DNA from: a virus
Virus record (IMG/VR): IMGVR_UViG_3300044213_000060
Location: 28,903-92,902 of that record
Reading direction: 5' to 3' (one strand)
Length of the DNA stretch: 64,000 nt
Positions 26,273 through 63,362 of the stretch are shown here, one piece after another; the first letter of the stretch is position 1, and every line of letters begins with the position of its first letter. The notes below the pieces were generated by a model. The model was not told where the DNA came from. It saw nothing but the letters and a program-made list of their open reading frames with translations, and did not search any database. Position numbers and translations under genes: made by a program.

Positions 26273-27473
26273 TACTATTTGTATGTTGCCTTGGATTAGC
26301 ATAGAAACTAGTCCTGTTGGAACTGCACGCCCATGTTGTATGGCACACGAAGAAATCACCGACGAACACGGGGAAAAATACGATTTAAATCAAACTGATT
26401 TAACCACGATATACCGTAGTGAATATATGCAAAATTTGCGCAGGCAATTTCGCAATGGCCTAAAACCTGAAACATGCTCGCGATGCTGGGATGAAGAAGA
26501 CGCCGGCAGAACCAGTAAACGATTGCACACACAAGATCGATTGAAGGAACTATTTGCACAAGTTGATTGGACCAATGATAACCCTGAACAACTGTGGTTT
26601 ATTGATTTAAAGTTAGGCAATATCTGTAATTTAAAATGTCGTATCTGCGGTTCGTGGTCTAGCAGTAAATGGGCCGAAGAAGAACTAGCATACATGCCCG
26701 AATTAGAAGATAAAAAATCTCATCTTGCATACAAACTGCTACGTGCCGGAGCATGGCCTCGTAAAACAGAAACATTTTGGGACGATTTAAAATCACTGCT
26801 ACCTAACATCAAATACTTTGAGTTTACTGGCGGCGAACCCTGGATGATTCAAGAACATTTTGACCTTCTACAATATGCAGTGGATACGGGGCATAGTCAT
26901 CATATTGATATTCACTATAATACTAATGGTTCCCAGTGGCCTAAGAATCCGCTATTATGGAAAGAATTTGGCCGGGTGGATATTGCATTCAGTATTGACA
27001 ATGTGGGCGATCGATTTGAGTATGAACGCTATGGTGCCAAGTGGGATGAAGCAAATAAAATTATTGATGCCACACATGTTTTAAAAGATACAAGTTTACC
27101 AAATATTACCACACAACTTTGCTTTACGATCAACGTACAAAATGTTTACTACTTAGATGAACTTCTTGCGTGGGCAGATACAAAAGGATTTGGAGATATC
27201 TATTTTAACATGATGCATGGCCCTGCACACATGAGTGTTCAATACATGCCCTTGGCTGCTAAAGAATTAGTATTAAACAAATTAAAAACAACATCTTGGA
27301 CAACCAATAATTATCAACAAGAAATTAACAATATTATTAATTTTATTGAATTAGGTCCTGGCAGCGACGGAAAAGAATTTTTAATTAAAATGAAAATAAC
27401 GGATCAATATCGCCGACAAAACTTTATGGATACACATCCAGAAATAGCTGCAGCAATGGGTTATGGACGCTGA
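26259..27473 (+). CDS. N-terminal twitch-domain radical SAM protein 6
   Basis: ICMLPW..PCC..TCSRCW; CNLKCRIC; GGEP; TNG. Confidence 0.9.
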   Translation: MNLPNTICMLPWISIETSPVGTARPCCMAHEEITDEHGEKYDLNQTDLTTIYRSEYMQNLRRQFRNGLKPETCSRCWDEEDAGRTSKRLHTQDRLKELFAQVDWTNDNPEQLWFIDLKLGNICNLKCRICGSWSSSKWAEEELAYMPELEDKKSHLAYKLLRAGAWPRKTETFWDDLKSLLPNIKYFEFTGGEPWMIQEHFDLLQYAVDTGHSHHIDIHYNTNGSQWPKNPLLWKEFGRVDIAFSIDNVGDRFEYERYGAKWDEANKIIDATHVLKDTSLPNITTQLCFTINVQNVYYLDELLAWADTKGFGDIYFNMMHGPAHMSVQYMPLAAKELVLNKLKTTSWTTNNYQQEINNIINFIELGPGSDGKEFLIKMKITDQYRRQNFMDTHPEIAAAMGYGR

Positions 27474-28473
27474 TTTAATATTTCACCGGCAACATAGAAA
27501 TTTGCCTTCGCCAAAAACAGTTACTAATACCTGTGACTGGCCATGGCATCAATTAAACATTGACAGCCAAGGGCGATTGTTTGTCTGCGGGTGTGATGCA
27601 TGGGTACCGTTTAGTGCAGGTACTGTAAATGATTTTGGTAGTTTTGCACAGGTGTTTGCAAGTCCGGTTGCACAGCAAGTACAAAATGCTATTACCGCAG
27701 GTACATTTGATTACTGCGATACCCGCCATTGCGGAGTTATGCAAAACAATCAAACAACACAATATGATTATTATTTGCATATAGGTATAGATGACAGTTG
27801 TAATTTGTTATGTCCAAGCTGTCGAAAAGATAAAATATTTAGAAGTGATGCTGAATGGATTGATCCTAGACTACAATGGATAGAACAAATAAATCAATGG
27901 ATACAACAAGTTCCTGATAAGACGGTACATATTATGATAGGTGCAAATGGTGATCCATTTGCAAGTTTAATTTATAGACACTTGATTAAACGTGTTGATT
28001 TCGCTCAAAATGTCAGTTTTAGTTTTCGCACCAATGGATTGTTAATGCAAAAACATCTGGCAGAATTTACCATACTGCCCAGGATACGCAATTTAGATAT
28101 TAGCATAGATGCCGCAACTGCTAAAACCTATGCTATTACACGTCGTGGCGGTGATTGGGACATACTAATAGAAAATTTAAAATTTGCTCAGAGTATAAAA
28201 GAACAGTACAATATTAATCTTGTTGGCAATTTCGTAGTACAACGTGCAAACTTTAGAGAAGTTCCTGAATTTGCACAATTGTGTTGGCAGTACGAGTTAG
28301 TGCCTAGTTATCAAATATTACAAGATTGGGGTACATACAAAAACTTTAAAGAAGAATGTGTACATTTCACTGATAGCCTACACTATAATGAATTCTGCCA
28401 AATATTTAAAGACGCCAGCTGGCAAACAGACAAGATTTATTTAAACGCGGTCCATGAGTATATTAAAACCTGA
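27463..28473 (+). CDS. N-terminal twitch-domain radical SAM protein 7 (divergent)
   Basis: CDWPW..CGC..YCDTRHC; CNLLCPSC; NGDPF in place of GGEP; TNG; SIDA. Confidence 0.85.
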   Translation: MDADLIFHRQHRNLPSPKTVTNTCDWPWHQLNIDSQGRLFVCGCDAWVPFSAGTVNDFGSFAQVFASPVAQQVQNAITAGTFDYCDTRHCGVMQNNQTTQYDYYLHIGIDDSCNLLCPSCRKDKIFRSDAEWIDPRLQWIEQINQWIQQVPDKTVHIMIGANGDPFASLIYRHLIKRVDFAQNVSFSFRTNGLLMQKHLAEFTILPRIRNLDISIDAATAKTYAITRRGGDWDILIENLKFAQSIKEQYNINLVGNFVVQRANFREVPEFAQLCWQYELVPSYQILQDWGTYKNFKEECVHFTDSLHYNEFCQIFKDASWQTDKIYLNAVHEYIKT

Positions 28474-29758
28474 TACACTATGTATGGCTCCGTGGACTCA
28501 CACATATCTAAGTCCACAAACAGAAAGACGCATGTGCTGTGCGTCGCGAGAGCCTGCGCAGAATTTTCAGCAGTATATTGATACTGGTAGTGGTACTGGT
28601 CAGTATATACCGATCACTTTGGATGAACATTGGAATGGGGAGCATCTAAGATCAGTGCGCCTGCGCATGTTGCGCGGGGAAACCCTCCCAGAGTGTGAAG
28701 TATGCAATGACAAGCTATTGAACACTGATGTTTACCGTAGTTATTTTAATCAACTGTTTGGGCATAAGTACGATAGTGTAATTGAAACTACAGATAGCAC
28801 GGGTTATACAACAATGAAACCAGTGTCGTGGGATTATCGTTTTAGTAATCTCTGTAATTTCAAATGCCGTATGTGCGGAGACATGTTAAGCAGTGCTTGG
28901 GAGTCAGAGCAACGCCAACACAACATGGTCGATTATGCTAATCCAAAAAATAATTGGATGCGACCTGAAGTCAAGCAACAAATTGAACAGTTTCAATCTA
29001 CTCAAGTAGAGCAAGAATTTGCCGATGCAGTTGAAGAACACCGTGTCGAAGAGGTCTACTGGGTAGGAGGAGAACCGTTGATGTACGAACAACACTGGAA
29101 GTACATGCAACGTATTGTTGAATTAGGAGATGGACCAAATGTTTACGCACGTTACAACACCAACCTTTCAAGGGTTCGTTACAAAGGTGTTAATTTATAC
29201 AGCGATATTCTTGGGCATTTGCGCGATTGGCAAATTTGTGCGTCAATTGATGGCACCGGCCAAATCGGAGAATACATCCGAACAGGCCTTGACTATGATC
29301 AATGGCTTAGAAACTTCCGTGAAGGAGTTGAGATCGCAACTAACCGACGTCAAATGCGAATTGACTTCACACTCACATTGCCAGGTATGTTCGAAACCCA
29401 TAACATTATGCGATTGTCGCGAGAGCTAGATGTAGATATACTAGCTAAAGTAATTTTTAGTTTTAGCCCGGACATAGTTATGTCACCTTTAGCCCTACCT
29501 AGAGAACTTTTAGAACCCTGGATAGACGAAACAATTAGCAAATTAGCAAGTGGTAGCAACCCGTTAAAGGATATACTTGTCCAACTAAAAACTAGACCTA
29601 CATTTGCGGAACAATGGCCCAATGAATATGCCAACGCCATTGCTCGAGGCAAGGCTCGTGTGTTAAAATTAGAAAGTATACGCACACAGCCTATTACAAT
29701 GGCCGAAATATTAAAGGAAAGACCTGATGTCTACAACTGGTGGCAATCAATTGCTTGA
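28454..29758 (+). CDS. N-terminal twitch-domain radical SAM protein 8
   Basis: LCMAPW..MCC..ECEVC; CNFKCRMC; GGEP; SIDG. Confidence 0.9.
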   Translation: MSILKPDTLCMAPWTHTYLSPQTERRMCCASREPAQNFQQYIDTGSGTGQYIPITLDEHWNGEHLRSVRLRMLRGETLPECEVCNDKLLNTDVYRSYFNQLFGHKYDSVIETTDSTGYTTMKPVSWDYRFSNLCNFKCRMCGDMLSSAWESEQRQHNMVDYANPKNNWMRPEVKQQIEQFQSTQVEQEFADAVEEHRVEEVYWVGGEPLMYEQHWKYMQRIVELGDGPNVYARYNTNLSRVRYKGVNLYSDILGHLRDWQICASIDGTGQIGEYIRTGLDYDQWLRNFREGVEIATNRRQMRIDFTLTLPGMFETHNIMRLSRELDVDILAKVIFSFSPDIVMSPLALPRELLEPWIDETISKLASGSNPLKDILVQLKTRPTFAEQWPNEYANAIARGKARVLKLESIRTQPITMAEILKERPDVYNWWQSIA

Positions 29759-31621: not shown

Positions 31622-32280
31622 TTCAAAGTATTTTAACAATCGGTGATAGCTTTACCTACGGTGAAGAATTAGATAATCGGGAACATGCCTGGCCTTATTA
31701 TCTTGCACGAGGACTAAAAGCCGATGTAGTAAATTTAGGTCAGCCCAGTGCCGGCAACACCGGAATGGTTCGCAAGGCCATGAGTTATAGTGTAACCGAT
31801 GCTCCTGTGGACCTAGTTATAGTAGCATGGTCGAGTGCAGGACGCATGGAGTTTGCTGACGAAAATGGCACCTATGATATATGGCCCGGGTATCTTGGCG
31901 GTAAGTTTACAAGAGACGATCAACTCTGGAGATTTGAAATATTAGAATATATCAACAAATATCATAGTCCAGAATATTTGTTCCAACAATATCTCGTAAA
32001 CATAATATCATTGCAGAGTTTTTTCAAAGCTAACAATCAACGATATCTAATGTTAGATATTGTTGGGCGAGACTACTATAAAAATACATATACAACACGC
32101 ATGCCTCAATTGGCAGGAATGGTTGACCCTACATATTTTATTGGGTGGCCCAATGATGGCATGGCAGAATGGACACAAGGATGTAGACGTGGCTCAGGTG
32201 GGCATTTTCTAGAAGATGGTCACAAGAAAGTGACTGCAAAAATTTATGAACATATTCGGAATCTCGGCTGGATTTCATGA
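31618..32280 (+). CDS. SGNH/GDSL-like hydrolase or acyltransferase
   Basis: GDSFTYG, NLGQPSAGN, GGHF. Confidence 0.68.
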   Translation: MIQSILTIGDSFTYGEELDNREHAWPYYLARGLKADVVNLGQPSAGNTGMVRKAMSYSVTDAPVDLVIVAWSSAGRMEFADENGTYDIWPGYLGGKFTRDDQLWRFEILEYINKYHSPEYLFQQYLVNIISLQSFFKANNQRYLMLDIVGRDYYKNTYTTRMPQLAGMVDPTYFIGWPNDGMAEWTQGCRRGSGGHFLEDGHKKVTAKIYEHIRNLGWIS

Positions 32281-33760
32281 TGCAGCCATAACAGTATTGC
32301 AGGACAACAAAATTGTCTTTGCAGGGCACGCTGAACGATACAGCAAAAGAAAAAACGATGCTAATCTCAATGACGATCTTGTTGCAGATGCTTTATCTTA
32401 TGGCAATCCAGATCAAATAGTGTACTACGAACGTCCTTGGATTAAGAAATTACAACAACTATATTCGGGACAGTACAATGAAGCTGCAAATTTTGATAAT
32501 TTTACTATTGGTCAGCATATTCGCAAATATATACATGTTCCTGTTCATCAGGAGCGACTACTATCTTGCCCTAGACGAAATATGTCCCATCATTTATCAC
32601 ACGCTGCCGCGGGATTCCAAACAAGTCCTTACCAAAAAGCCACAGTTGTGGTTATAGATGCTATCGGTGAATTAGATACCGTTAGTATTTACGGTGCAGA
32701 GTATGTTAATGGGCGGGCTCAGTATCGAAAACTATGGGGACAACGTTATCCACATAGCATAGGATTATTTTATAGTGCAATGACACAAGCAGTTGGATTA
32801 AAGCCTAACGAAGAAGAATATATAATGATGGGCATGAGTGCATATGGTACTGATGCTGTAATCACAGATGGGCTATCTACGGTTATAAAAAATAAATTTG
32901 TTGCAGACGAATATGCAATTGAATTTAAGGAAAACTTACATGCAGGTGCTGATTTGCATCCATTTGATTATTTAGAAAAAGAAGATATTGCTTATGGTGC
33001 ACAACGATTAGCTGAACGTTTGATATACAATGTTATGCATCGTGCTAAGATGTTCGACTTTAGTTCAAACTTGGTTTATATGGGCGGTGTGGCACTTAAC
33101 TGTTTAGCAAATAGAAACTTAGGAGATTATTTTGATAATATATGGATTATGCCTAATCCTGGTGATGCTGGCAGTAGCCTGGGCGCTGCCGCCCTTGCTT
33201 ATGGCGGTCCTCTTGTGTGGCGCGATGCTTACCTTGGGACTAATATTGCCGGTGACTATCCTGTTAATGGATTGTTGGATACTTTACTCACTGAAAAAAT
33301 TGTCGGAGTTGCCTCGGGACGAGCAGAATTCGGGCCCAGGGCACTAGGCAATCGTAGTTTGTTAGCGGACCCAAGAGGGCCAGATATAAAGGATCGTGTA
33401 AATGAAATTAAACGAAGACAAAAATTTCGACCTTTTGCCCCAGTTATTCTGGAAGAGATGGTTGATGAGTACTTTGATGTTCCTCGTGGTTGGAGTGACA
33501 GCAGGTATATGCAGCTCGTCGGTAAGTGTAGGCGTCCTGACTTATTTCCTGCTATCGTTCACGTGGATGGGACTAGTCGTATTCAGACCGTTCCACAAGA
33601 TGGATCAGGAATAAGACAACTGTTAGAAAAATGGTATGTAATGACAGATTGCCCAATGTTGTTAAATACTAGTTTGAACATACGCGGAGAACCTATGGTT
33701 AATGACCGCGCAGATGCTGATAGATTTGAAAAAATGTATAACGTAAAGGTATGTAGTTAA
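32246..33760 (+). CDS. O-carbamoyltransferase (NodU/CmcH/TobZ family)
   Basis: GFHDAA, ERYSKRKND, HHLSHAA, DAIGE, GGVALNC, GDAG, EFGPRALGNRS, FRPFAP, HVDGTSRIQTV, NTSLN. Confidence 0.95.
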   Translation: MNIFGISAGFHDAAITVLQDNKIVFAGHAERYSKRKNDANLNDDLVADALSYGNPDQIVYYERPWIKKLQQLYSGQYNEAANFDNFTIGQHIRKYIHVPVHQERLLSCPRRNMSHHLSHAAAGFQTSPYQKATVVVIDAIGELDTVSIYGAEYVNGRAQYRKLWGQRYPHSIGLFYSAMTQAVGLKPNEEEYIMMGMSAYGTDAVITDGLSTVIKNKFVADEYAIEFKENLHAGADLHPFDYLEKEDIAYGAQRLAERLIYNVMHRAKMFDFSSNLVYMGGVALNCLANRNLGDYFDNIWIMPNPGDAGSSLGAAALAYGGPLVWRDAYLGTNIAGDYPVNGLLDTLLTEKIVGVASGRAEFGPRALGNRSLLADPRGPDIKDRVNEIKRRQKFRPFAPVILEEMVDEYFDVPRGWSDSRYMQLVGKCRRPDLFPAIVHVDGTSRIQTVPQDGSGIRQLLEKWYVMTDCPMLLNTSLNIRGEPMVNDRADADRFEKMYNVKVCS

Positions 33761-46702: not shown

Positions 46703-47762
46703 AAATCTCCGAAACGAATTACTTGATATAACTGATCGAGTATACACCAGCGGCCAAGTATTAGATGGCAACTACACCAAGTACTTCGAACTAGAAATTT
46801 CAGAAAGATGCGATAGAGCCTATGCGGTAGCAATGGGTTCTTGTACGCAGGCACTTATATTTGCAAATGCATTTGGGGCGAAAAAAACAAATAAAGTTAT
46901 GATACCGGCAATAAGTTTTGCTGCAACATTAAACAGTGTAATAATGGGTGGATGCGAACCTGTGTTCTGTGATACTGATGACGCTGGTTTAATTGATTTG
47001 GCAAGTGTTGATTTTGCTATTGCTGGTGCAGGAGTGTCAACAATAAACTATGTGAATCTATGGGGACATACTGTTAACTGGGACAAATTTAGAATACACA
47101 CAGAATTCTTTAACCAGGATCTGTTTATTATAGAAGATGCGGCACAGAGTTTTGGTGCAAGCTACAAGGAAATTCCGTCGGGCAAAATGGGCACAGTAAG
47201 TTGTTTGAGCTTTGATCCTACCAAAAATCTCAACAACTACGGGTCCGGGGGCATGTTGCTTACCGATGATGTAGACATATACAATGCTGCAGTTAACTTT
47301 AGGGACAATGGTAAAATGGACGGGCATCATGACATCGGAACTAACTCAAAAATGAGTGAAGCAGACTGTGCACAGATGTTGGTAAAGTTGAGACACTTTG
47401 ATGCATGGCAGACACGCAGACAACAAATAGCCGACTACTATGCCAGCAACCTATACAGTTATGTGGATTGTGTGTTGCCCAAACACGATGTTACAAGTGC
47501 CTGGAGTAAGTTTGTTATTAGGTTAACTCACAGACACGGACTACGAACACATCTTAGCAACAACGGCGTAGAAACAAAGATACACTACGATAAAATCTTA
47601 ACAGAGTTGCCGATTGGCTATGAATATACTGATTATATAAATGAATCTTTTAGAGAAGCACACGCATTTACTAGAGAGTGTTTGAGTTTGCCAATCTACC
47701 CCGAACTCACAGACGCCGAAGTAGAGCACATTGTTAAATGTACTCTAGATTACTTGCGTTGA
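46653..47762 (+). CDS. DegT/DnrJ/EryC1/StrS sugar aminotransferase
   Basis: IEDAAQSFG, SFDPTKNL (PLP lysine), GGM, LSLPIYP. Confidence 0.93.
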   Translation: MSGSKIIPFFGIQRQYKNLRNELLDITDRVYTSGQVLDGNYTKYFELEISERCDRAYAVAMGSCTQALIFANAFGAKKTNKVMIPAISFAATLNSVIMGGCEPVFCDTDDAGLIDLASVDFAIAGAGVSTINYVNLWGHTVNWDKFRIHTEFFNQDLFIIEDAAQSFGASYKEIPSGKMGTVSCLSFDPTKNLNNYGSGGMLLTDDVDIYNAAVNFRDNGKMDGHHDIGTNSKMSEADCAQMLVKLRHFDAWQTRRQQIADYYASNLYSYVDCVLPKHDVTSAWSKFVIRLTHRHGLRTHLSNNGVETKIHYDKILTELPIGYEYTDYINESFREAHAFTRECLSLPIYPELTDAEVEHIVKCTLDYLR

Positions 47763-50700
47763 TAATAATCGTTTAACCAAGCCCATTCAAACGATAACTT
47801 TAGTTTTTCGTAATCCCCGCTGACACTATTGTAATAGTCAACAGCATCACGAGCTCCGGCCAAACAATCTTCAGCAAATGCACCTTTGGCTTGAGTTAGC
47901 CACACATCAAGTCTATGTGCAGTTTCAAGCGTTGGTTCCGTAGCATCAAAGTGTTTTAGTTTAACAACTTCGCGGAAAGCAGTGCGCCAGGTCATCCAAG
48001 CACTTTGGTTAAAATGTGCTGTTCCTGACAGTATTGGCACAGATTCGTGTGGTTGGCTTAGTGTAAAGTCAATACCTGGATTGTTATTTTGCAGAACCAA
48101 ATTCTTGTTGTAACATATTATTCCTTGGTGCCCATATTCCAATCCGTTTAAGGGATTACGTGCATTGAAGATATAGTGCTTGGGTCCTTGCCAGTAGTCG
48201 GGTTGCCAGGTAAACCATGGAAATTCTCCTCCGGCAACTTCCAACTTGGCAAACACAGCAAAGAACCAAGGTGTGCGACTACGACGTGCAGCTTCTTGGT
48301 AGGCCGCAGTACGTCCATTGACTCCACGCACCCATTCAATGTCATTGGTATTGCTTTGATAGCACAGGTGCTCATACCAACGTTGTTCGTCGGGTTCTCC
48401 GTTGCTGATATATACAATATCAATGCCCGGCATAGCACGGCCAGGATAGTAGCCATTATAGGCTTTTTCTATGCGGTCTAGGTAAGGATAATCGTAGATT
48501 TGTGTCCTTAAATCAGCCTTTATGTCCCGGGGTACTATACACGTAGCACCGTTGTTGGTTACTCTTACTACAGTACGATCTTTTTTGGTCCATAAACACG
48601 GAGATTCAGTTCGAAACTGTGATACAGCATCATTGGTAAACATCACATACGGAGTCTCGAAGTTGTAGTTCTTGATTTCTTCTATCAAGTCATCAGATTC
48701 ATAAACATGGACCGGCATTGGGAACACCGGAGCCTGATTTGTTTCAATGTAGTTGATCACATTAAACCAATCCAACAACTCCAACTCAACCATTTGTGTC
48801 TTGAATGATTCCACATGTATGTAGAATGTGTCACCACGTGGTCTACGGGCAGATCCAAAGCAATGTATCATTTCGCGTTGCCAGGGTTCTGGTTGCCAGG
48901 TAAAGTCAAAGTAATCGTAGTTGACCGTACTGTTTAGTATCCAAACAAATTCTGTTTCGGCGGTAGTCATAATACGTTTAAATGTATCAAGATAGTTGTC
49001 TACAAAACGTGTGCGCACAATCTCTGGATATTCGGCTTGTAATATTTTAAACGAAGTGTCGCTTTCGGGATTGCCGTGGTCAACAAAGTAAATGTTATTT
49101 AGATTTTCAGGCTTTGTTACTGTTTGGTTTGTTACAAAGTTCAAGTTGGGAAATTGTTCAATGCCGGCGGCCCAGCGACTGTGTCGTTCAAACTCCCACC
49201 GGTTGATCAAGAATGTGTCTGACCATTTGTTGTGTTGACTTGGGAATACGTGTGTCATATAACTCTGCCAAGGTTGAGCGTGCCAGGTAAAGTCAAATGT
49301 GTTATAGTTGTATTCGCTGCTAATAACCCAAAACTTATTTGTTTTCGAACGTGCCACGCATCTTTGTATAGTGGCCATTATTGAATTTGCATAACGTATA
49401 CGCTGTATGTTAGGGTACTGAGCTTGTAATCGATCAAATCGTACACCGGCAGTGGCATTGTTGCGATCAACAAAGAATATATCTAAGACTTCTACAGATT
49501 TTTTTAATTTTATAATACGAGGTATTTCAGATTCAAATCTAATATCTGTAGCACCGGGTACTGTGTAGGTTAACCCTACGCTGACTTGATGTTCAGTGCC
49601 AAAGTGATAGATGTACGGTGGGTTGCCAGGATCAGGTACCCACGAAAAGTCTATGTTTGCAGCATCTACTTCTTCGGGCACAGTCCACTGTGTTTGATCT
49701 GCAGGTAGTCTAGCACGTGGTTCATCCATGTACTTGCGTTCTGTGGCTCCGGGCATGTGATACTCTACTGTGGCCATTTTTTCTGCGGGATACCACTGAT
49801 TACCAAACACATAGATGTAGGCCGGAGATCCAGGTTCAGGATGCCAGGAGTAATCCCATTCACAGTCAATGATGGTATGCCAATGATGATCGCGATGTTC
49901 GGTCAACTGTGCCGTCGGATACTGCATGTACTTGCGTTCTGTAGCACCTGGCATATGATATTCAACAGTAGCATCAATTTCGGCAGCATAATATTGATTA
50001 CCAAACACATAGTTGTATGCAGGAGATCCGGGTTCAGGCTCCCACGAATAATCAAACGTGATATTTGGATAGTTTCTTATAAACTTATCAGGATTACCAA
50101 TTCTACGAGCCTTTGGCTCTGACATGTATTTTCGTTCTGTGGCGCCATCAACTTGATATTCCAATGCCGGGCGAATCTCGGCAGACATCCACTGATTACC
50201 AAATACATAAATATAAGGAGGATCAGTGGGGTTAGGTTTCCAACTATAATCAAATTCTTCTATGTTGTCTAATAAAATCCAATTTCGATACTTGGCTGAT
50301 ATCTTTGCTACTGCTTCCATGTATTTTATTTCATCTCCGCCGGCACGGAATATCACTGTGGGTTCTAATACAGCAGGATTCCATTGATTGCCCCAGATAT
50401 AAGTCAGTGGGGGTTCTTTGGGGTTTGGATGCCAACTGTAATCAAATTCATCTATGTCGAATTGGTTTTCAAACAACTCAGGTTGTGGTAATCTAACAGT
50501 TCTGGCTTCCATGTATTTTACTTCTGCTGCACCCGGTACAACATATCTTAGACTAGTATGGTATTCTGCAGGCCAATGTTGATTGCCCCATTCATAGATA
50601 TATGCAGGATCACGAGGATTGGGTACCCAAGACCAGTCCCAAATATTTTCGTCAATGGGTTCTAGTATTTCCCAATTTATTCGTGATGGTAACAGGCGTG

Positions 50701-51964
50701 CAACTATGCCTTCTACAAATTTTTCTTCTACAGCACCCGGCACAGTATATTTTACTGTGGGCATGATTGTTCCAGGATAGTGTTGATTGCCAAACACATA
50801 GATATAAGGGGGATCACCAGGATCTGGATGCCAAGAGTAGTCAAACTTTATTGCATGGTCAACAACAATTGTCCAATTTGTATCTGTTGGAGTTAATGTT
50901 GCAATTAATTCATCTACATATTTTTGTTCGGTGGCACCTTCTACATGGTATTCAACTGTAGACATTTTTTCTGCAGCATGCCATTGATTGCCGAACACAT
51001 AGATATAAGGTGGTGCACCTGGATCAGGTTCCCATGAATAATCAAATACACACTGTGCATTTATTTTAAAATTGCCAGGAACACTTCGACGTCGTACCTG
51101 TAATTCTGATACAAATTTATTTTCTGTGGCACCAGGAACACAGTACACCACTGATGCACGAACTTCTGGTGGATGCCATTGATTACCGAACACATAGTTG
51201 TATGGCGGATCTGTTGGATTAGGGCGCCAACTAAAATCAAACTCTTCTACTTCATCTAATATTTCCCAGTTAGTTATGTCTGCGGCCACTTGGGCAACAA
51301 CGTCATCAATATATTTTATTTCTGTAGCATCATGAACTGTGTAAACAATTGTAGGTTCTAATACTGCAGGATTCCATTGGTTACCAAACACATAAGTGTA
51401 TGGCGGATCAAGCGGATTAGGATGCCATGAATAATCAAATTCGGCAACTGCAATGTTAACGCCAAATGCCTGTGGATTATCTATAGCACGAACAACAAAT
51501 GCATCCACTAACTTGACTTCGGTGGCACCTGGTACTACATATGTCACACCTGATGCACTTTGATGTTGATCAGGGAAGTGATAGATGTAAGCGGGGTCCA
51601 TGGGATTGGGACTCCAACGCCAGTTGATGCTTGCAGGATCTATGTGGTCTGGAATTGACCACTGTTCTTTCACCGGCAGTCTATGCACTCGCATGCCGCC
51701 GTCATGATAGCACTCGGCACCTGCAGGATTTTGTGTTAGATACACATTGCCGTTGTTGTTGTGTTGATCAGGCCAGATGTGAGTATAGTCAGATTCCCAA
51801 GGTACAGGTTGATATTCAAAATCAAATCCAGTATAGTCATTGCCGCCATAAATATACCAGTAGAAGCCAGTTCTACTTTTCTTGGCAGCATCTTCCAAGC
51901 TGTCAGCAGCTTGTTCAAATTCAAACAAATTGGGCTTTGGCCCATAATAAAAAACGTCAAACAT
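47750..51964 (-). CDS. 1404-aa protein: 11 tandem Trp/Pro-rich repeats plus three degenerate GT-A-like domains
   Basis: Repeat consensus FDYSWxPxPxxPPYIYVFGNQW...YxVPGATExKY; the last domain aligns with 18173..19078. Confidence 0.75.
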   Translation of the reverse strand: MFDVFYYGPKPNLFEFEQAADSLEDAAKKSRTGFYWYIYGGNDYTGFDFEYQPVPWESDYTHIWPDQHNNNGNVYLTQNPAGAECYHDGGMRVHRLPVKEQWSIPDHIDPASINWRWSPNPMDPAYIYHFPDQHQSASGVTYVVPGATEVKLVDAFVVRAIDNPQAFGVNIAVAEFDYSWHPNPLDPPYTYVFGNQWNPAVLEPTIVYTVHDATEIKYIDDVVAQVAADITNWEILDEVEEFDFSWRPNPTDPPYNYVFGNQWHPPEVRASVVYCVPGATENKFVSELQVRRRSVPGNFKINAQCVFDYSWEPDPGAPPYIYVFGNQWHAAEKMSTVEYHVEGATEQKYVDELIATLTPTDTNWTIVVDHAIKFDYSWHPDPGDPPYIYVFGNQHYPGTIMPTVKYTVPGAVEEKFVEGIVARLLPSRINWEILEPIDENIWDWSWVPNPRDPAYIYEWGNQHWPAEYHTSLRYVVPGAAEVKYMEARTVRLPQPELFENQFDIDEFDYSWHPNPKEPPLTYIWGNQWNPAVLEPTVIFRAGGDEIKYMEAVAKISAKYRNWILLDNIEEFDYSWKPNPTDPPYIYVFGNQWMSAEIRPALEYQVDGATERKYMSEPKARRIGNPDKFIRNYPNITFDYSWEPEPGSPAYNYVFGNQYYAAEIDATVEYHMPGATERKYMQYPTAQLTEHRDHHWHTIIDCEWDYSWHPEPGSPAYIYVFGNQWYPAEKMATVEYHMPGATERKYMDEPRARLPADQTQWTVPEEVDAANIDFSWVPDPGNPPYIYHFGTEHQVSVGLTYTVPGATDIRFESEIPRIIKLKKSVEVLDIFFVDRNNATAGVRFDRLQAQYPNIQRIRYANSIMATIQRCVARSKTNKFWVISSEYNYNTFDFTWHAQPWQSYMTHVFPSQHNKWSDTFLINRWEFERHSRWAAGIEQFPNLNFVTNQTVTKPENLNNIYFVDHGNPESDTSFKILQAEYPEIVRTRFVDNYLDTFKRIMTTAETEFVWILNSTVNYDYFDFTWQPEPWQREMIHCFGSARRPRGDTFYIHVESFKTQMVELELLDWFNVINYIETNQAPVFPMPVHVYESDDLIEEIKNYNFETPYVMFTNDAVSQFRTESPCLWTKKDRTVVRVTNNGATCIVPRDIKADLRTQIYDYPYLDRIEKAYNGYYPGRAMPGIDIVYISNGEPDEQRWYEHLCYQSNTNDIEWVRGVNGRTAAYQEAARRSRTPWFFAVFAKLEVAGGEFPWFTWQPDYWQGPKHYIFNARNPLNGLEYGHQGIICYNKNLVLQNNNPGIDFTLSQPHESVPILSGTAHFNQSAWMTWRTAFREVVKLKHFDATEPTLETAHRLDVWLTQAKGAFAEDCLAGARDAVDYYNSVSGDYEKLKLSFEWAWLNDYYQRK
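49535..51665 (-). repeat. 11 tandem ~65-aa repeats with higher-order period of five
   Basis: Units 2-6 match units 7-11 pairwise (e.g. NPAVLEPT in 2 and 7; PNPTDPPY in 3 and 8). Boundaries are approximate. Confidence 0.85.
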
Positions 51965-55435: not shown

Positions 55436-55464
55436 ATAATAGCATATTATTATCGTTGTGTCAA
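55436..55464 (-). promoter_or_regulatory. Promoter TTGACA-N17-TATTAT with TG, probably leaderless
   Basis: -35 at 55464-55459, -10 at 55441-55436, ATG 6 nt downstream. Confidence 0.7.
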
Positions 55465-56160
55465 GAAATATTCTGCTATTTTTTGGTGAGTTTTTGGTCC
55501 AGGATGCGATCCATCTCTAGCCAAATCAAGCATTCCATACTGAGAAAAAAAAGTATTTGAATCTAATTCGTTAATACTAAAGTTGTATATTTTTGATAAC
55601 ATATAAACTATAGCTTGATTTTTAAAAAACCGATTAGCAGATTCACTTTTAGACATATACCATACATCTTCAATTGATGCAGATTTTGATACTATATTTA
55701 TAATTGGTATTATTTCTGGCCGATTGGGGTAATATTTTTCAAATCTTGATGCTTCTGGCCAAAAAATATATGCAGTCTGCACAGAAAAAAGAGAAACAAC
55801 GTTGGTCATTATTCTTGCAACAGTATCTGTTGTACCACCACCGACTCCAAAATTCAGCATAGGAATACCAGTGGCCTGTTCTATTAAGTTAGACCAACGC
55901 ATGCTTTCTGCAATACCAACCCCCAAAGTATGACTACATCCCAGTGCAATATTTACTTTTTTATCTCGGTACAGATCTAAATTGTATGTTCGAAATCCTG
56001 TACTATTATATACATACGGAATATCAATATTCATCCATTCTTGTCTGTTGGGATTTTTATTTAAATTTTCTTCGGTGTCGGTAGCGTCCCAATACAAAGT
56101 TGTATTACGTGGAGCAGCAGTATATGGTAAAATTCCATGTCTCCAAAAGTTTTCGATCAT
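55450..56160 (-). CDS. SGNH-like protein
   Basis: GCSHTLG, NFGVGGGT, DGSHP; start set at the ATGA overlap. Confidence 0.65.
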   Translation of the reverse strand: MIENFWRHGILPYTAAPRNTTLYWDATDTEENLNKNPNRQEWMNIDIPYVYNSTGFRTYNLDLYRDKKVNIALGCSHTLGVGIAESMRWSNLIEQATGIPMLNFGVGGGTTDTVARIMTNVVSLFSVQTAYIFWPEASRFEKYYPNRPEIIPIINIVSKSASIEDVWYMSKSESANRFFKNQAIVYMLSKIYNFSINELDSNTFFSQYGMLDLARDGSHPGPKTHQKIAEYFLTQR

Positions 56161-56858
56161 CTTGTTAATTCCATTTCTACCATATATTTGAATAAAAAAT
56201 CGGCCCATGCAGAGTGTGCATCTGCGCCAAAGTGGAAAGATTTTGGATTAACTGTTTTGAAACCATTTTTTCGGCACCAATTATAGTAAGTATACTCATT
56301 ATCGTATGGTTTTACGTATCTATGATCCCAGTTGTATACTGGTAAACGATATATATTAAAAGATTCATAACAGGTAAAAAACACATGCGGAATTTCTAAT
56401 AAATTTAGAAAATGGTGAAATTCCCAGATTTTAGCTTCTGATTCCTGTGCTTTTTCTTGGAAGTTTACACTAACAATCCATTCTTTATACCGTTGTTTTA
56501 CAGCCGCAGGCCAATCTTCTCCTACGCCTCCGGCATTGACCTGCCACCAACGATCTTCTTCGAACCATTCTTCTCGTTCCCAAGTGCTCCAACCAATAAC
56601 AACATAATCTGGACGATTGGTCTTTAGATATTCTTTAGTCGTTCTAATAATACGATCATTGCTGCTAGCCGACTCAGCATCACAATGTAAAACTGCAGAC
56701 ATCCGATTAGCAAGTTCACAACCCCAACTTACACGGAGATTGTCTGGATGCGGTTGCCGACCCAATCCACGATATAAGTAGTCATCTTCGGCAAAACAAT
56801 GTGGATTAACTGCTTCGGCTCCGGCTGTATGGCTGTCGCCGTTTACATATAAAATCAT
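56157..56858 (-). CDS. SGNH-like protein
   Basis: GDSHTAG, ASSN, VIGWS, FHF. Confidence 0.62.
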   Translation of the reverse strand: MILYVNGDSHTAGAEAVNPHCFAEDDYLYRGLGRQPHPDNLRVSWGCELANRMSAVLHCDAESASSNDRIIRTTKEYLKTNRPDYVVIGWSTWEREEWFEEDRWWQVNAGGVGEDWPAAVKQRYKEWIVSVNFQEKAQESEAKIWEFHHFLNLLEIPHVFFTCYESFNIYRLPVYNWDHRYVKPYDNEYTYYNWCRKNGFKTVNPKSFHFGADAHSAWADFLFKYMVEMELTR

Positions 56859-57441: not shown

Positions 57442-58728
57442 TTAATATCTATATGTGTCGGGTTTATATGGTCCGTTAACGTCCACGGAAATATAATCTG
57501 CTTGTTTTTCAGTTAATCTAGTTAGTGTAGCACCAATTTGTTCAAGATGCAACCTAGCGACCATTTCATCTAAATGTTTAGGTAACAAATATATTTGCCC
57601 ACGTTGATAGTTATCAGGATTGTTAAATAATTCAATTTGTGCAATTGTTTGATTTGTAAAACTATTACTCATTACAAAACTTGGATGTCCGGTAGCACAA
57701 CCCAAATTTACCAAACGACCTTTTGCCAACAGAATAATGCGTTTACCATCTGGAAAAATAACATGATCCACTTGCGGTTTAATTTCTTCCCAACCACAAT
57801 CACTTAATCCTGCAACATCAATTTCAGTATCAAAGTGCCCAATGTTACAGACGATGGCTTGATCTTTCATTGCATCCATGTGTGCACGAGTGACAACATC
57901 AACGTTGCCAGTTGCAGTAACAAAAATATCTGCTTTATCTGCGGCATAATCCATAGTGACTACACGAAATCCCTCCATAGCAGCCTGCAATGCACAAATA
58001 GGATCCACTTCAGTTACCCATACCTGTGCACTAAGTGCACGCAGAGCCTGTGCGGAACCTTTCCCAACATCGCCGTATCCGGCAACAACCGCAACTTTAC
58101 CTGCGATCATAACATCAGTTGCACGCTTGATTCCATCGACTAGACTTTCTCGGCAACCATATAAGTTATCAAATTTACTTTTGGTAACCGAGTCATTCAC
58201 ATTAATTGCAGGAATCTTTAAGGTACCTGCAGCAATACGTTCTAGAAGTTTATGTATGCCAGTTGTGGTTTCTTCGGTAACTCCGATGATACCATCCAAT
58301 AAATCACTGTGGCGATCGTGAATATAACCAGTTAGGTCATGTCCGTCATCAAGGATCATATTGGGAGTCCAACCATTGGGTCCGCGAACAGTTTGTTCTA
58401 TACACCACCAATACTCTTCTTCGGTTTCGCCTTTCCAAGCAAACACAGGTATCCCAAGATCAGCAACTGCAGCAGCAGCATGATCCTGAGTAGAAAAAAT
58501 ATTACAACTACTCCAACGTACACTAGCCCCAAGTGCAACTAGAACTTTAATAAGTACTGCAGTCTGTATAGTCATATGCAGTGACCCTACAATACGAGCA
58601 CCAGCCAAGGGTTGTTGATCTCGATATTTTTCCAATACTGCTCTCAAACCAGGCATTTCATGCTCGGCGATAGCAATTTCTTTATGACCCCACTTTGCTA
58701 AATTTATATCTGCTACTTTATAATCCAT
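57442..58728 (-). CDS. ahcY: S-adenosylhomocysteine hydrolase
   Basis: [69 protein letters not shown]. Confidence 0.97.
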
Positions 58729-58730
58729 TA

Positions 58731-59138
58731 TTAATCCTTATGATATTTCCATGCTTCATCTGATCCGCCTAGGTGTCCCCAGTCACTATCGGCTACCATA
58801 GTGCTACTTATACCTCCTCTAGGACGAAATTCTATTTCAATACGAATACGAGTTGGTTCGTAAGCAGTTTTAAGATGCTGATACATTACATTTAAACTTC
58901 TTTCGTAACTTATGATCGTATCTCTATACTGATACAAATATTCTTTTAAACTTTTTAATTCTATGGTCTTTTCGTTACCATAAAACCAAATTTTAATTGC
59001 ACCAAAATCGGGTTGATCATGAACACCCAGGAATGTAAATTCAGGTATTGATATTCTCTGCTCAAAGCCCTTAGCTGAATTTGGTAATGATTTTAGTATA
59101 TCGCCGCGTATACTTTGCCATAATTTTTTATCACTCAT
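58731..59138 (-). CDS. QueF-like T-fold protein lacking the catalytic cysteine
   Basis: [16 protein letters not shown] (QueF motif), PRGGI; no Cys anywhere in the protein. Confidence 0.8.
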
Positions 59139-59150
59139 TATTATATTTTC

Positions 59151-60254
59151 TTAAAACAAATTAATTTGTTCCCAAGGCAAATCAGACTTGCCGAAATGAC
59201 CATAGTTTGTTGTAGAACTATATATAGGACGGAAAAGATTAAAACGTTTGATAATACCAGCTGGAGTTAGATCAACATTATTATTTATCCATGCAGTAAG
59301 ATCTCTATTTAACTCAGTGCCACCGGTTTCTATATAAAAACTCATCGGATCTTTCATACCAATGGCATAACTAATTTGGCAAGTTGCGTTTGGTGCTCGA
59401 CCCGATGCTACAATATTTTTAGCAATGTACCTCATCATATATGCAGCAGATCTATCAACTTTGGTAGGATCTTTTCCACTAAATGCACCACCACCATGCG
59501 GGCTATATCCACCGTATGTGTCAACAATAATCTTGCGACCAGTTAATCCACAGTCGCCATCCGGACCACCTATAACAAATCTTCCAGTCGGATTAATATA
59601 AAATTCGGTGTTATTGTCAACATAATTTGAAGGTAATAACGCACGAATGATTTTTTCTACTTCTGCACGTACAGTATCAATGCCGATATCTGCAGAATGT
59701 TGGGTTGAACAAACAACTTTAGCAATACGTACCGGTTGACGATTATCATCATACTCAAAAGTAACTTGGCTCTTTGCATCAGGTCCTAACCAACTGAAAT
59801 GATTATTAGTTTTTCGAACTCGAGCAAGTTCTTGCACAATCCGATGACTCCAATAAATGGCGCTAGGCATGTAGGTGTCAGTTTCGTTACAGGCATAACC
59901 AAACATCAAGCCCTGATCGCCTGCACCAAACGTATCTGTGCCTAATGCGATATCTGCTGACTGTCCATGTAGCTCATTATAGATCTTTACAGTGCGCCAA
60001 TCAAATCCTTCTTGTTCGTATCCAATGTCTTTGATAGTTTTACGGATAGTACTTTCTACTTCTTCTTTGTGTAAAATACCTTTATATTCACCAGCAACGG
60101 TAACCATATTTGTTGTTACTAATGTTTCGCAGGCACATCGTAACGAGGTATCTTCTTTAGCCATTATCAAATCTAATACTGCATCACTAATAGCATCTGC
60201 TACTTTATCAGGGTGCCCTTCACCAACACTTTCACTTGTAAATAGATAACTCAT
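59151..60254 (-). CDS. metK: S-adenosylmethionine synthetase
   Basis: FTSESV.EGHPDK, GAGDQG, PDAKSQV, GLTGRKIIVDTYGG, GGGAFSGKDPTKVDRS. Confidence 0.98.
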   Translation of the reverse strand: MSYLFTSESVGEGHPDKVADAISDAVLDLIMAKEDTSLRCACETLVTTNMVTVAGEYKGILHKEEVESTIRKTIKDIGYEQEGFDWRTVKIYNELHGQSADIALGTDTFGAGDQGLMFGYACNETDTYMPSAIYWSHRIVQELARVRKTNNHFSWLGPDAKSQVTFEYDDNRQPVRIAKVVCSTQHSADIGIDTVRAEVEKIIRALLPSNYVDNNTEFYINPTGRFVIGGPDGDCGLTGRKIIVDTYGGYSPHGGGAFSGKDPTKVDRSAAYMMRYIAKNIVASGRAPNATCQISYAIGMKDPMSFYIETGGTELNRDLTAWINNNVDLTPAGIIKRFNLFRPIYSSTTNYGHFGKSDLPWEQINLF

Positions 60255-60592: not shown

Positions 60593-60837
60593 AGTACATG
60601 TTCCTTACTATCATGCCAACGAAATTCAAAAACAGGATCACCGGGCCCAGTCCACATCGCCGACCCTTCCACGGCAGTTGTTAACCACAACCAACGACCA
60701 GTTATATTACAACGGCGTGGCCACCACAGGAAACGTTCCATCCATACTGCTCGACGATAAAACGATTCTTCTAACTGATCTCTATCCCACCCCGGAGGTG
60801 CTTGTGACACTGAATCCAACGGCATCATGTACCCCAA
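60565..60837 (-). CDS. Hypothetical Trp-rich protein
   Basis: 90 aa. Confidence 0.5.
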   Translation of the reverse strand: MGYMMPLDSVSQAPPGWDRDQLEESFYRRAVWMERFLWWPRRCNITGRWLWLTTAVEGSAMWTGPGDPVFEFRWHDSKEHVLWLLKSQNP

Positions 60838-61673
60838 GCGTTCCGGAATAAGGGAACTTGGAGTCTATCGCTATAACGCCAACCACGTTTCATTGCCGCA
60901 AGTGCAACATTCTTAGCGTTTAAATTATAAACACTTTCTACACCACCTGTGGGCATTAAGTATACATGTCCACTAAACCCGGCCGCTCTATATTCTTTAA
61001 CTGCTCGGTTTGCATCTTTAACATCCTCATCTGTGGCTACTACAAATTTTAAATATGCAGTTCCGTAGTCTTGATAGTCAAACACAATCTCCGGCTTAAT
61101 TGCATCTTCCCATGTTTCTCCACTAACAGGAAGTTTAGCACTAACACTAAAGGTAATTTCTCTGCCGGGTTTACTAGCGGTCCACTCTGTTAAGTATTGT
61201 TTGAATTCTGGAGTTAATGATTGAGTGCCATTTGTTTCAAAAGTAATTTCTTTTAATCCTGTCATTGCAGGATGATCCAACAAGTCTGGGTAAGCACGTT
61301 GCCAACCTAACAATGGCTCGCCTCCGGTGATGACAAGATGCTCGTCCCTCCAGGTGTTATGTGGGAGAATGTGCATGATTCTATCTGCAATGGCATCACT
61401 TGAAAGCATAGGACTAAGTTCTTTAAAATCAGGATGCCAACTAGCGTAACTATCACAACCTGTAGAAACGAGAGGAAGTTCTTCATAATTATTAAATAAA
61501 TGTACCACTTGTGCAATTTCTTCGGCTTCGGTGCTTAGTTCGCCTTTGGGCATGCCAAAACCGGCACATTTAAAATTACAGCCAAAGACACGCAAGAACA
61601 CACTAGGTACCCCCATGTATCTACCTTCACCTTGGATGCTATAAAATAACTCTGCGACTTTTAGTTTACTCAT
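60825..61673 (-). CDS. queE: 7-carboxy-7-deazaguanine synthase-like radical SAM protein
   Basis: ELFYSIQGEG..GVPSVFLR.FGCN..C...CDS, TGGEPLL, ETNGT, SAK, YLMP, RLQ. Confidence 0.85.
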   Translation of the reverse strand: MSKLKVAELFYSIQGEGRYMGVPSVFLRVFGCNFKCAGFGMPKGELSTEAEEIAQVVHLFNNYEELPLVSTGCDSYASWHPDFKELSPMLSSDAIADRIMHILPHNTWRDEHLVITGGEPLLGWQRAYPDLLDHPAMTGLKEITFETNGTQSLTPEFKQYLTEWTASKPGREITFSVSAKLPVSGETWEDAIKPEIVFDYQDYGTAYLKFVVATDEDVKDANRAVKEYRAAGFSGHVYLMPTGGVESVYNLNAKNVALAAMKRGWRYSDRLQVPLFRNAWGT

Positions 61674-62025
61674 AAATTGATGACCATTTTTTAAGTTTGT
61701 TGAATTTTGCCTGTTTGTTTTCGTCTAACTTGTCTGTATTTAGAATACCTTGATCTACTAGAATATCTATCATTGCTAACACATCGCCTACTTCTTGTTC
61801 GAGAGTTGCTCGATGCGTTAAATGGGTATGGTATGACATTTCGTCTATACCAAATCTTTGTATTTTACTTACTTCTTGGATTATTTCGGCACATTCTTCG
61901 GAAAGAATAACTAATGCTTCTAATATTTTGCTATCAACTGCATTGATTTTTTTGTATACAGTAAAATTACGTGATTCTCGTTCAGCACGTTGTTCTATGT
62001 GATTATTTAATTTTTTTGCTAACAT
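61666..62025 (-). CDS. MazG-like nucleotide pyrophosphohydrolase
   Basis: EECAE...EQEVGD; start set at the TAATG overlap. Confidence 0.7.
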   Translation of the reverse strand: MLAKKLNNHIEQRAERESRNFTVYKKINAVDSKILEALVILSEECAEIIQEVSKIQRFGIDEMSYHTHLTHRATLEQEVGDVLAMIDILVDQGILNTDKLDENKQAKFNKLKKWSSIYE

Positions 62026-62204
62026 TATTGATTCCAATGACGTATAACACCTGCTACAATGAACAGATTTGTTACTATAGATATTAACACAATTGTTGTA
62101 CGGATGCAAGCAATTAAATCTGCTTCTTTGTCCGAATCACCGGCCTTTTCACCTAATGCCTTTGCCCATAATCTCCAGCATTTTTTAATGATTTCTTTTA
62201 CCAT
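62025..62204 (-). CDS. Small membrane protein (WRLWAKALGEK type)
   Basis: One hydrophobic C-terminal helix; start uncertain. Confidence 0.55.
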   Translation of the reverse strand: MVKEIIKKCWRLWAKALGEKAGDSDKEADLIACIRTTIVLISIVTNLFIVAGVIRHWNQ

Positions 62205-62526
62205 CAAATACACAATTGAATAATAAATTTTGTTCGCCATCATTTATTACACGATGGAAAGCACCATCTGGAATTAGTACAATATCTCCAGCGGTAACAT
62301 AAAATGGTTCATCTGACTCATCACCAACAATCATCTGTCCGTGTCCGGAGACAAAAATATAAACTTCTTCTTGTCCTGGGTGACGATGTCCTCTAGTTTG
62401 TTGCCCTACTCGTAATTTGGTACTACTTAATACCAGATTTTTTAATGTCTTGTTATCTTTTAACACATAGGTTTCGTTGTCTTTTACAACTTCTCCACCT
62501 ATGTCATAAATGCTATACTTATTCAT
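62185..62526 (-). CDS. Cupin domain protein
   Basis: GHRH..QEEVY...G.G and GD...IP.G..H...N. Confidence 0.85.
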   Translation of the reverse strand: MNKYSIYDIGGEVVKDNETYVLKDNKTLKNLVLSSTKLRVGQQTRGHRHPGQEEVYIFVSGHGQMIVGDESDEPFYVTAGDIVLIPDGAFHRVINDGEQNLLFNCVFDGKRNH

Positions 62527-63031
62527 AATCTGCTTCTGTTTTAATAACTACATTGCCCTCATCGTTGGCTTCAATGATACGCACAATATCGCCTGCTTCA
62601 TTTTTAATGGCAATCGGACCCCAGATCCACCAGTCAGTATCACTTTGACGCCAACGATCATCTTCACGATCTTCTAATTCATATGGACTATTTTCCTCAA
62701 GGAATTCACGAATTTCTTCCTCTTCCTCTTCATCAAGTCCTTCGATTTCAATATCATACCAGCAACCGCCATCAAACAGTTCAACAAGTTCAACATACTC
62801 AATATTATTAACTTCACAGTCTAGCATGTTGATACTATCTTTTTTACCATCGCCTCCAGGAAGTTCTACAAACTCAAACTCGGGTGGATTGTCGTCTGTA
62901 GTATCTACCGTCCATTCTCCGTAACGATAACCATTAACAACAGTTACCTTACCTTCGCCTTCACGTTGATAGTATGTTTCAACTTCTTGAACATTCTTTT
63001 TATGATATGTACTTACATTCCATGTTGCCAT
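62519..63031 (-). CDS. Highly acidic hypothetical protein
   Basis: 170 aa, E/D-rich. Confidence 0.6.
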   Translation of the reverse strand: MATWNVSTYHKKNVQEVETYYQREGEGKVTVVNGYRYGEWTVDTTDDNPPEFEFVELPGGDGKKDSINMLDCEVNNIEYVELVELFDGGCWYDIEIEGLDEEEEEEIREFLEENSPYELEDREDDRWRQSDTDWWIWGPIAIKNEAGDIVRIIEANDEGNVVIKTEADYE

Positions 63032-63032
63032 T

Positions 63033-63362
63033 TTAATTCTCCTGCAAAAATATTTCTAATTTTAATTGAAGTTCGGGACCTAACCATCTTACACCTTCGG
63101 AATGATCTCTAAGATCATCCTTGATACTTTCATGTAGCAATATACTATTTGTCTCATGATTGACTCGCAAGAATGATTCTATAAAGTCTTTATTATACGT
63201 GGAATATACAACTTGGTACATAGGTAATGGGTGAGGACCTACGGGTTGATCCCAAACTCTACCTAGTGTACATCCAGGCTGATTGGTGAACCATTCCCTT
63301 ATTGCCATAGCTGTGTATCGTTCAGTGGGTGTACCCCAGTATATGTGTGCGTGATAGTCCAT
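63033..63362 (-). CDS. DOPA 4,5-dioxygenase family protein
   Basis: YHAHIY, PVGPHPLPMYQV, SILLH, DH...WLG. Confidence 0.8.
   Translation of the reverse strand: MDYHAHIYWGTPTERYTAMAIREWFTNQPGCTLGRVWDQPVGPHPLPMYQVVYSTYNKDFIESFLRVNHETNSILLHESIKDDLRDHSEGVRWLGPELQLKLEIFLQEN

Follow-up and report, generated by a model that had tools for sequence, protein, structure and literature searches.

The window analyzed here is a stretch of 64,000 nucleotides (positions 28,903 to 92,902 of the IMG/VR record IMGVR_UViG_3300044213_000060), which forms part of a 92.9-kb virus contig of freshwater metagenome origin with a CheckV completeness of 26%. Judged from its relatives of 338–355 kb, the source virus is a jumbo phage. 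On the minus strand, the window encodes two enzymes of the SAM cycle, SAM synthetase (metK; 59151–60254; three S-AdoMet_synt domains, E-values from 1e-33 to 1e-59) and S-adenosylhomocysteine hydrolase (ahcY; 57442–58728; AdoHcyase, E-value 4e-130). Between them, on the same strand, lies an ATG-started open reading frame for a protein of 135 residues (58731–59138), which we refer to as X in the following. The three genes are closely spaced: metK precedes X in the same operon with a gap of 12 nt, and ahcY follows X after 2 nt.

Upstream of this block, and likewise on the minus strand, we find genes for a QueE-like radical SAM protein (60825–61673; phrog_2076, E-value 3e-50), a MazG-like pyrophosphohydrolase (61666–62109), a cupin (62185–62526), an acidic protein of 170 residues (62519–63031) and a member of the DOPA 4,5-dioxygenase family (63033–63362). 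Downstream of it, a minus-strand gene that matches DUF6071 just below the Pfam cut-off (56157–56858) adjoins another one without Pfam or PHROG match (55450–56208, minus strand). The remainder of the window includes a very long reading frame of at least 2818 residues, which is open at the window start (1–8457, plus strand), and one of 1404 residues (47750–51964, minus strand). At least eight tandem paralogous radical SAM genes, with products of 336–461 residues, occupy positions 19765–29758 on the plus strand and are followed by a carbamoyltransferase gene (32246–33760). Several members of this array have an N-terminal SPASM-like Fe-S domain, and the radical SAM load of the window is unusually large for a phage. 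No SAM riboswitch was found in the window.

The Pfam QueF model (PF14489) matches X with an E-value of 1e-18. The AlphaFold2 model of X (pLDDT 90.6) is a T-fold monomer, for which Foldseek returns Bacillus subtilis QueF as the best match (4fgc and 4f8b; E-value 6e-10, TM 0.76), with FolE and QueF-L ranking after QueF; X and QueF are of similar size and about 32% identical. In an alignment with 4f8b/4fgc, X retains the QueF residues Asp62 (Asp44 in X) and Glu97 (Glu79), Glu78 together with the motif for NADPH and substrate-N9 binding (ELKSLKEY, residues 60–67; 58938–58961), and the RGG triplet (residues 107–109) within PRGGI (residues 106–110; 58809–58823). The consensus of this QueF motif has been given as E(S/L)K(S/A)hK(L/Y)(Y/F/W) (PMC13740343, PMC10516641). 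By contrast, the catalytic Cys55 is replaced by Gly38 (codon 59025–59027) in a segment (residues 32–45; 59004–59045) whose loop is shorter by one residue, and Phe95-His96 is replaced by Ser77-Tyr78, such that the F-H-E-D of QueF (residues 95–98) reads S-Y-E-R in X (residues 77–80; 58899–58910); all these segments lie on the minus strand. The whole translation contains no cysteine, and the thioimide mechanism is therefore unavailable to X. Accordingly, the QueF mutants C55A and C55S are inactive (PMC13740343), and a census of the QueF family explicitly left out any sequence lacking Cys55, on the grounds that it is not a QueF (Mohammad et al., 2017; PMC5372742). Against TIGR03139, the curated NCBI equivalog model for preQ1 synthase with a cut-off of 86.9 bits, X scores 79.8 bits and bacterial members of its family score 84.7 and 86.5 bits. 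A first-pass annotation of the locus had described a cysteine-free QueF homolog between metK and ahcY, which has SYE for FHE, keeps ELKSLKxY and PRGGI, and cannot employ the known mechanism; the reading frame, the Pfam match, the alignment and the Foldseek result all bear out this description.

The name attached to PHROG 5949, GTP cyclohydrolase I (FolE), is not appropriate for X: Pfam assigns QueF only and not PF01227, and FolE structures are distant fold matches with 11–16% identity. FolE, moreover, binds zinc via a Cys/His/Cys triad, and X has no cysteine to offer. Two other T-fold proteins provide instructive comparisons. QueF-L, the crenarchaeal archaeosine synthase (5JYX), is likewise a QueF paralog with a changed function (TMt 0.87 over about 100 residues). 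It keeps the thioimide-forming cysteine, acting on preQ0-tRNA, and has lost the NADPH-dependent reduction (PMC5485725, PMC10516641). X, at about 15% identity, is the opposite case, as it has lost the cysteine and kept the NADPH motif. DpdL is a cysteine-less phage paralog of QueD and has been proposed to be a CDG decarboxylase (Cui et al., 2023; PMC10516641). It resembles X in being a T-fold protein from the queuosine pathway of phages, in the loss of the catalytic cysteine and in having a new proposed activity; however, DpdL is of QueD/PTPS descent, its gene occurs together with those for DpdA, FolE, QueD and QueE, and it has a link to DNA modification, whereas X is a QueF descendant and shows no tie to DpdA. 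A literature search yielded no published account of a cysteine-less QueF family, nor of a link between such proteins and methylenetetrahydrofolate reductase (MTHFR) or methionine synthase. X thus belongs to a so far undescribed family without the cysteine, which is sister to unimodular QueF.

This family is large. A word-indexed protein search with X returned 4372 relatives, the 120 nearest of which are 69–100% identical to it. All 119 of these that span the segment read PEFTFLG...QPDF, and SYE is present in every one that spans that motif, which is a degree of conservation far above chance. In an exhaustive HMMER search of 1.8 billion cluster representatives (871 matches), the top of the list is mostly occupied by cysteine-less, SYE-bearing clusters, which precede the canonical C-P-x-T-G-Q-P-D sequences. 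When 32 diverse members, down to 32% identity, are aligned, 15 columns are invariant, including E33, G38, D44, L61, K65, R72, S77, Y78, E79, R80, P95, R107, G108 and G109; the glycine at the position of Cys55 is thus a hallmark of the clade, and Asp44, Glu79 and the E60–Y67 motif are invariant or nearly so. In a quick maximum-likelihood tree, one branch (SH-aLRT 93) parts 61 cysteine-less sequences from 19 canonical QueFs, which points to a single origin of the former; among these, the phage proteins cluster together with branch support. The phage genes have a median dN/dS of 0.084, a value that is based on 33 usable pairs with largely saturated dS.

These data bear on the possibility that X is a nonfunctional QueF undergoing decay or that its cysteine is missing owing to an assembly error, as one might suspect from the missing nucleophile and from a score below the NCBIfam equivalog cut-off. 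Three further runs of freshwater metagenomes, which belong to different studies, yielded contigs in which the Gly38 codon is unchanged, and this independent agreement excludes a sequencing error. Likewise, decay of a singleton is at odds with a dN/dS that indicates purifying selection and with thousands of relatives that share new invariant residues in a clade of apparently single origin. We therefore regard this explanation as hardly credible, and the first-pass annotation, which had asked for confirmation in reads and for a clade under purifying selection, is answered in favor of a genuine protein. Judged from its sequence, X appears to be a neofunctionalized branch of the QueF family that has not been published before.

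Some further observations concern the limits of the family. Longer relatives, in which X seems fused to Lar, FliM or low-complexity pieces, look like gene-call artefacts. A tblastn search against cultured and deposited phages found canonical, cysteine-bearing QueFs at less than 40% identity and no X; hence, no named phage in that collection carries it. The homolog of Chitinophaga varians (L046:8085–8426) has an in-frame stop just before PEFTFLG and is either a pseudogene or affected by a sequencing error in the assembly. Lastly, thousands of database entries of the family are labeled 7-cyano-7-deazaguanine reductase or preQ1 synthase, even though they do not possess the defining cysteine, and attempts to reconstruct queuosine metabolism or the modification of phage DNA are misled by this label.

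Given its descent, X might act on or bind a 7-deazaguanine (preQ0, CDG or a derivative), be it as a new enzyme or to interfere with host queuosine synthesis by sequestration or a dominant-negative effect. The first-pass annotation had named a deazapurine, a pterin or a purine as possible substrates of a new T-fold activity and had alternatively proposed a protein that binds and diverts preQ0. The QueF fold, the retained preQ0-anchoring Glu79 and Glu60, and the QueE-like gene at a distance of about 1.7 kb in the window are in line with such roles. This gene is as real as metK and ahcY, but the TIGR QueE models match its product only far under their cut-offs, and in a related viral contig (L085) it travels with metK–ahcY in the absence of X. 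Its product also carries an insertion that separates the third cluster cysteine from the first two. No other gene of the deazaguanine pathway was found: the 92.9-kb contig encodes no TGT/DpdA, QueC, FolE or QueD, an absence that, at 26% completeness, proves little for this phage itself, and a complete 338-kb relative with X (G001) encodes none of these and no QueE-like protein either. TGT/DpdA (PF01702) and QueC are missing from all five phage records that we searched, i.e. the contig and G001–G004. The DpdA/TGT transglycosylase is the signature of phage 7-deazaguanine DNA modification (PMC10516641), and none is co-encoded with X in these records. A related phage contig, G003, does carry FolE, QueD and QueE-like genes together (C1:6960–13042), without QueC or TGT/DpdA, in a cluster that lies about 27 kb from its X–ahcY pair and that may constitute a partial, CDG-level pathway, unless the remainder is located off the contigs.

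The literature on deazaguanines in phages covers QueF, DpdL, DpdM and DpdN and nothing like X (PMC10516641). Furthermore, bacterial homologs of X reside in methionine operons, with a SAM riboswitch rather than a preQ1 riboswitch, and a dominant-negative protein would not persist in a cell beside that cell's own QueF, a situation that we describe below. A deazaguanine role for X is therefore not supported, and we consider it improbable. Of the earlier suggestions, the deazapurine as substrate finds no support, and neither do the binding or diversion of preQ0 and the dominant-negative effect, in view of the complete phage without que genes, the coexistence with QueF and the methionine operons; the pterin is favored by the methionine-gene context and by the distribution of MetF described below.

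In viruses, the neighborhood of X points to the SAM cycle. Among 33 viral loci with X, ahcY is the next gene in about 22; metK precedes X in seven of the 33, where the order metK–X–ahcY recurs, and in other loci X follows nrdA–nrdB. The adjacency of X and ahcY in phages probably represents one inherited arrangement and not many independent events. Conversely, among 78 ahcY loci of related phages with room upstream, X is present in 18 and absent from 60. In two related viral contigs (L054 and L085), metK abuts ahcY with no X between them, and in contigs of two other freshwater runs, position 58735 is joined to position 59169, with 28 other nucleotides replacing X. Hence, X is an optional cassette within the metK–ahcY pair. 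It also occurs without either partner's company: G001, which is complete with terminal repeats, encodes X (72% identity) without ahcY and carries it alone, a situation that fits an enzyme acting on host pools. None of the five phage records contains MetF (PF02219), and no MetH homocysteine domain was found in the phage records. A search for an alternative folate gene in the slot upstream of ahcY in phages lacking X yielded an RNAP-omega-like protein and proteins without assignment only. The former, a protein of 87 residues directly upstream of ahcY, is found at L083:2733–2996 and in 20 other viral loci without X and matches Rpb6/omega with an E-value of 3e-10.

Purines, like pterins, are known ligands of T-folds, and X could accordingly be an accessory protein of the SAM cycle with a purine or nucleoside as its ligand, for example one that handles adenosine or SAH or that regulates AhcY or MetK. 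The 2-nt and 12-nt distances to ahcY and metK and the frequent adjacency to ahcY are what one would expect of such a protein. Yet the anchoring glutamate is specific for 2-amino-4-oxo rings and not for adenine (PMC13740343), the NADPH motif is conserved, X is missing from most phage ahcY loci and is found in G001 without ahcY, and its bacterial partners, to which we turn now, are methionine synthesis genes and not ahcY. Together, these observations render the accessory function quite improbable.

Bacterial homologs, which have 49–56% identity and carry the motifs described above, were found in Chitinophaga, Crocinitomix and other Flavobacteriales, in Marinimicrobia, in a gammaproteobacterial MAG and in Pleionea mediterranea. 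In Crocinitomix (L043 and L044), X is situated behind a SAM-I riboswitch and between the two halves of a split metH, one gene encoding the homocysteine domain and the other the pterin, B12 and activation domains. This split-metH arrangement with X is found in four of twelve evenly sampled Bacteroidia carriers. In five Marinisomatota carriers, X adjoins a gene for a protein of 285–290 residues that matches methyl-THF:corrinoid methyltransferase and the folate domain of MetH; in the Marinisomatota genome G435, it overlaps the start of metE (L150:2866–5408), and in G375, a second genome of this phylum, it overlaps msrB, the gene for methionine sulfoxide reductase B (L148:4962–5968). No SAM riboswitch was found beside X in the Chitinophaga, Marinimicrobia and Pleionea loci. 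MetH, MetE and the methyltransferase-like protein have unrelated folds, and what they have in common is 5-methyl-THF. The B. subtilis protein YitJ is a fusion of a homocysteine domain with an MTHFR, and the order of a homocysteine-domain gene followed by X might be seen as mirroring this fusion. Unlike QueF, X is thus found in the context of methionine and SAM genes and not of que genes. Moreover, normal QueF is encoded alongside X in Pleionea, in a Marinimicrobia MAG and in the gammaproteobacterial MAG, and canonical QueF is also present in five of eight Marinisomatota carriers. As X coexists with normal QueF, it must have a different job.

The usual source of 5-methyl-THF is MetF, whose loss causes auxotrophy for methionine. 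For the analysis of its distribution, species were drawn evenly, in samples rich in uncultured aquatic lineages, and X was identified with a profile of the cysteine-less clade, which gives a bimodal score distribution (198–222 bits for X, 58–98 bits for canonical QueF). Among 301 Bacteroidia genomes, MetF is absent in all 12 carriers of X and in 19 of 289 non-carriers (Fisher p = 1.5e-13, a value that overstates the support, since the 12 carriers are not phylogenetically independent events). In Marinisomatota (151 genomes), it is absent in six of eight carriers and in four of 30 non-carriers tested (Fisher p = 0.0017). Two unpublished genomes, G108 and G186, were counted only among the MetF-positive non-carriers. 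All 12 Bacteroidia carriers possess a MetH-type homocysteine domain, which is absent in 12 of the 19 Bacteroidia that have neither X nor MetF. Of the carriers, 23 of 24 encode FolA and 24 of 25 encode FolD, and genome incompleteness thus does not explain the missing MetF. The same counts rule out that X replaces dihydrofolate reductase or FolD. Pleionea mediterranea DSM 25350 has X and no MetF, and of the 33 different carriers considered overall, 25 are without MetF. The complementarity has exceptions in both directions. MetF and X occur together in five Chitinophaga species, in the marine bacterium AO1-C and in G435, and G397, another member of Marinisomatota, has a weak MetF match. Seven sampled Bacteroidia, in turn, have MetH but no MetF and, even at E-values up to 1, no X; these must either solve the problem in yet another way or have incomplete assemblies. 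In 400 sampled Gammaproteobacteria, X was found in the seed genome G020 alone, and this sample provides no phyletic information.

Taken together, it seems probable that X no longer takes part in queuosine synthesis and that its substrate is a folate of the methionine cycle. We infer its substrate, product and mechanism from the observed limits of the family, its conservation, its neighborhoods and its phyletic pattern. The specific reaction that we propose, at roughly even chances of being correct, is that of a flavin-independent, NADPH-dependent 5,10-methylene-THF reductase, which would make X a functional analog of MetF. The first-pass annotation was right, then, in judging the known mechanism impossible, and a novel activity of the T-fold, with a pterin as one potential substrate, is likely; the link that it drew to a diversion of preQ0 finds no support. 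We wish to emphasize that X is proposed to work like MetF and not to belong to its family; a Pfam search detected no PF02219 match in X. MetF is a FAD-dependent TIM barrel, to which X corresponds in the proposed reaction, in its operon place beside metH and in its complementary distribution. It differs from MetF, as well as from the mycobacterial reductase Mfr, in having no sequence or fold relation to either, being a T-fold of 135 residues with a predicted activity. What the mycobacterial enzymes contribute is the precedent of flavin-independent MTHFRs that receive a hydride directly from NADH in a different fold (PMC11094777, PMC10586308); since hydride transfer without flavin is feasible there, the chemistry envisaged for X is plausible.

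The proposed mechanism exploits the correspondence between deazaguanines and pterins. In the chemistry of GTP cyclohydrolase, guanine N7 becomes pterin N5, and N9 becomes N8. In QueF, Glu97 binds N1 and N2 of preQ0, Glu78 binds N9-H, and the hydride of NADPH is transferred to the carbon attached to C7 (PMC13740343). By analogy, Glu79 and Glu60 of X could hold the 2-amino-4-oxo-pyrimidine ring and N8-H of a reduced pterin. With C7 of 7-deazaguanine corresponding to N5 of the pterin, the exocyclic carbon of the methylene-THF 5-iminium ion would come to lie at the position of the preQ0 nitrile carbon and face NADPH. Opening of the imidazolidine ring might be catalyzed by Asp44 acting as a general acid. 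As the iminium carbon is already electrophilic, no covalent cysteine adduct would be needed, and direct hydride transfer would yield 5-methyl-THF. The smaller Gly38 and Ser77 may enlarge the pocket, and the new invariant residues Tyr78 and Arg80 may bind the larger folate. X is presumably an oligomer with active sites at the subunit interfaces. No T-fold pocket is known to accept a folate with its pABA-Glu tail, which counts against the proposal.

In the infected cell, phage X would then raise the level of 5-methyl-THF for the methionine synthase of the host (MetH or MetE), which would convert the homocysteine released by AhcY back to methionine, for MetK to form SAM. The SAM demand of the phage is unusually high, given the eight or more radical SAM genes of the window in addition to the QueE-like one.

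The coexistence of X and MetF in Chitinophaga, AO1-C and G435 counts against an MTHFR activity, unless X is an isozyme that some clades keep beside MetF and that has replaced it in others, as is seen with MetE/MetH or ThyA/ThyX. The coexistence would also be explained if X were an NADPH-dependent reductase of another folate or pterin of the methionine cycle that assists MetF, for instance by repairing 5-methyl-dihydrofolate to 5-methyl-THF or by reducing 5,10-methenyl-THF. Many carriers would then be expected to keep MetF; the neighborhoods with metH, metE and the methyltransferase-like gene would fit equally well, and the overlap with msrB, a methionine repair gene, would find a natural place. 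Such an assisting role, however, leaves the source of 5-methyl-THF for MetH or MetE unexplained in the 25 of 33 carriers that lack MetF, and with FolD and FolA present in nearly all carriers, the steps in question need no substitute. We regard it as possible but unlikely.

If X is indeed a methylene-THF reductase, it would represent a new fold and a flavin-free mechanism at a central step of one-carbon metabolism, and it would illustrate how a nitrile reductase can turn into an iminium reductase by the loss of its nucleophile. The cysteine-less QueF family might then, with about as much to be said for this as against it, be considered a third, structurally unrelated class of MTHFR, a small T-fold that uses NADPH directly and without flavin and that has taken the place of MetF in numerous aquatic Bacteroidia and Marinisomatota. 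It would close the ‘missing MetF’ gap in the synthesis of methionine by a large number of uncultured bacteria from freshwater and the sea. In jumbo phages, X would be a new auxiliary metabolic gene, which completes a phage-encoded SAM cycle of MetK, AhcY and X and drives the regeneration of methionine and SAM in the host.
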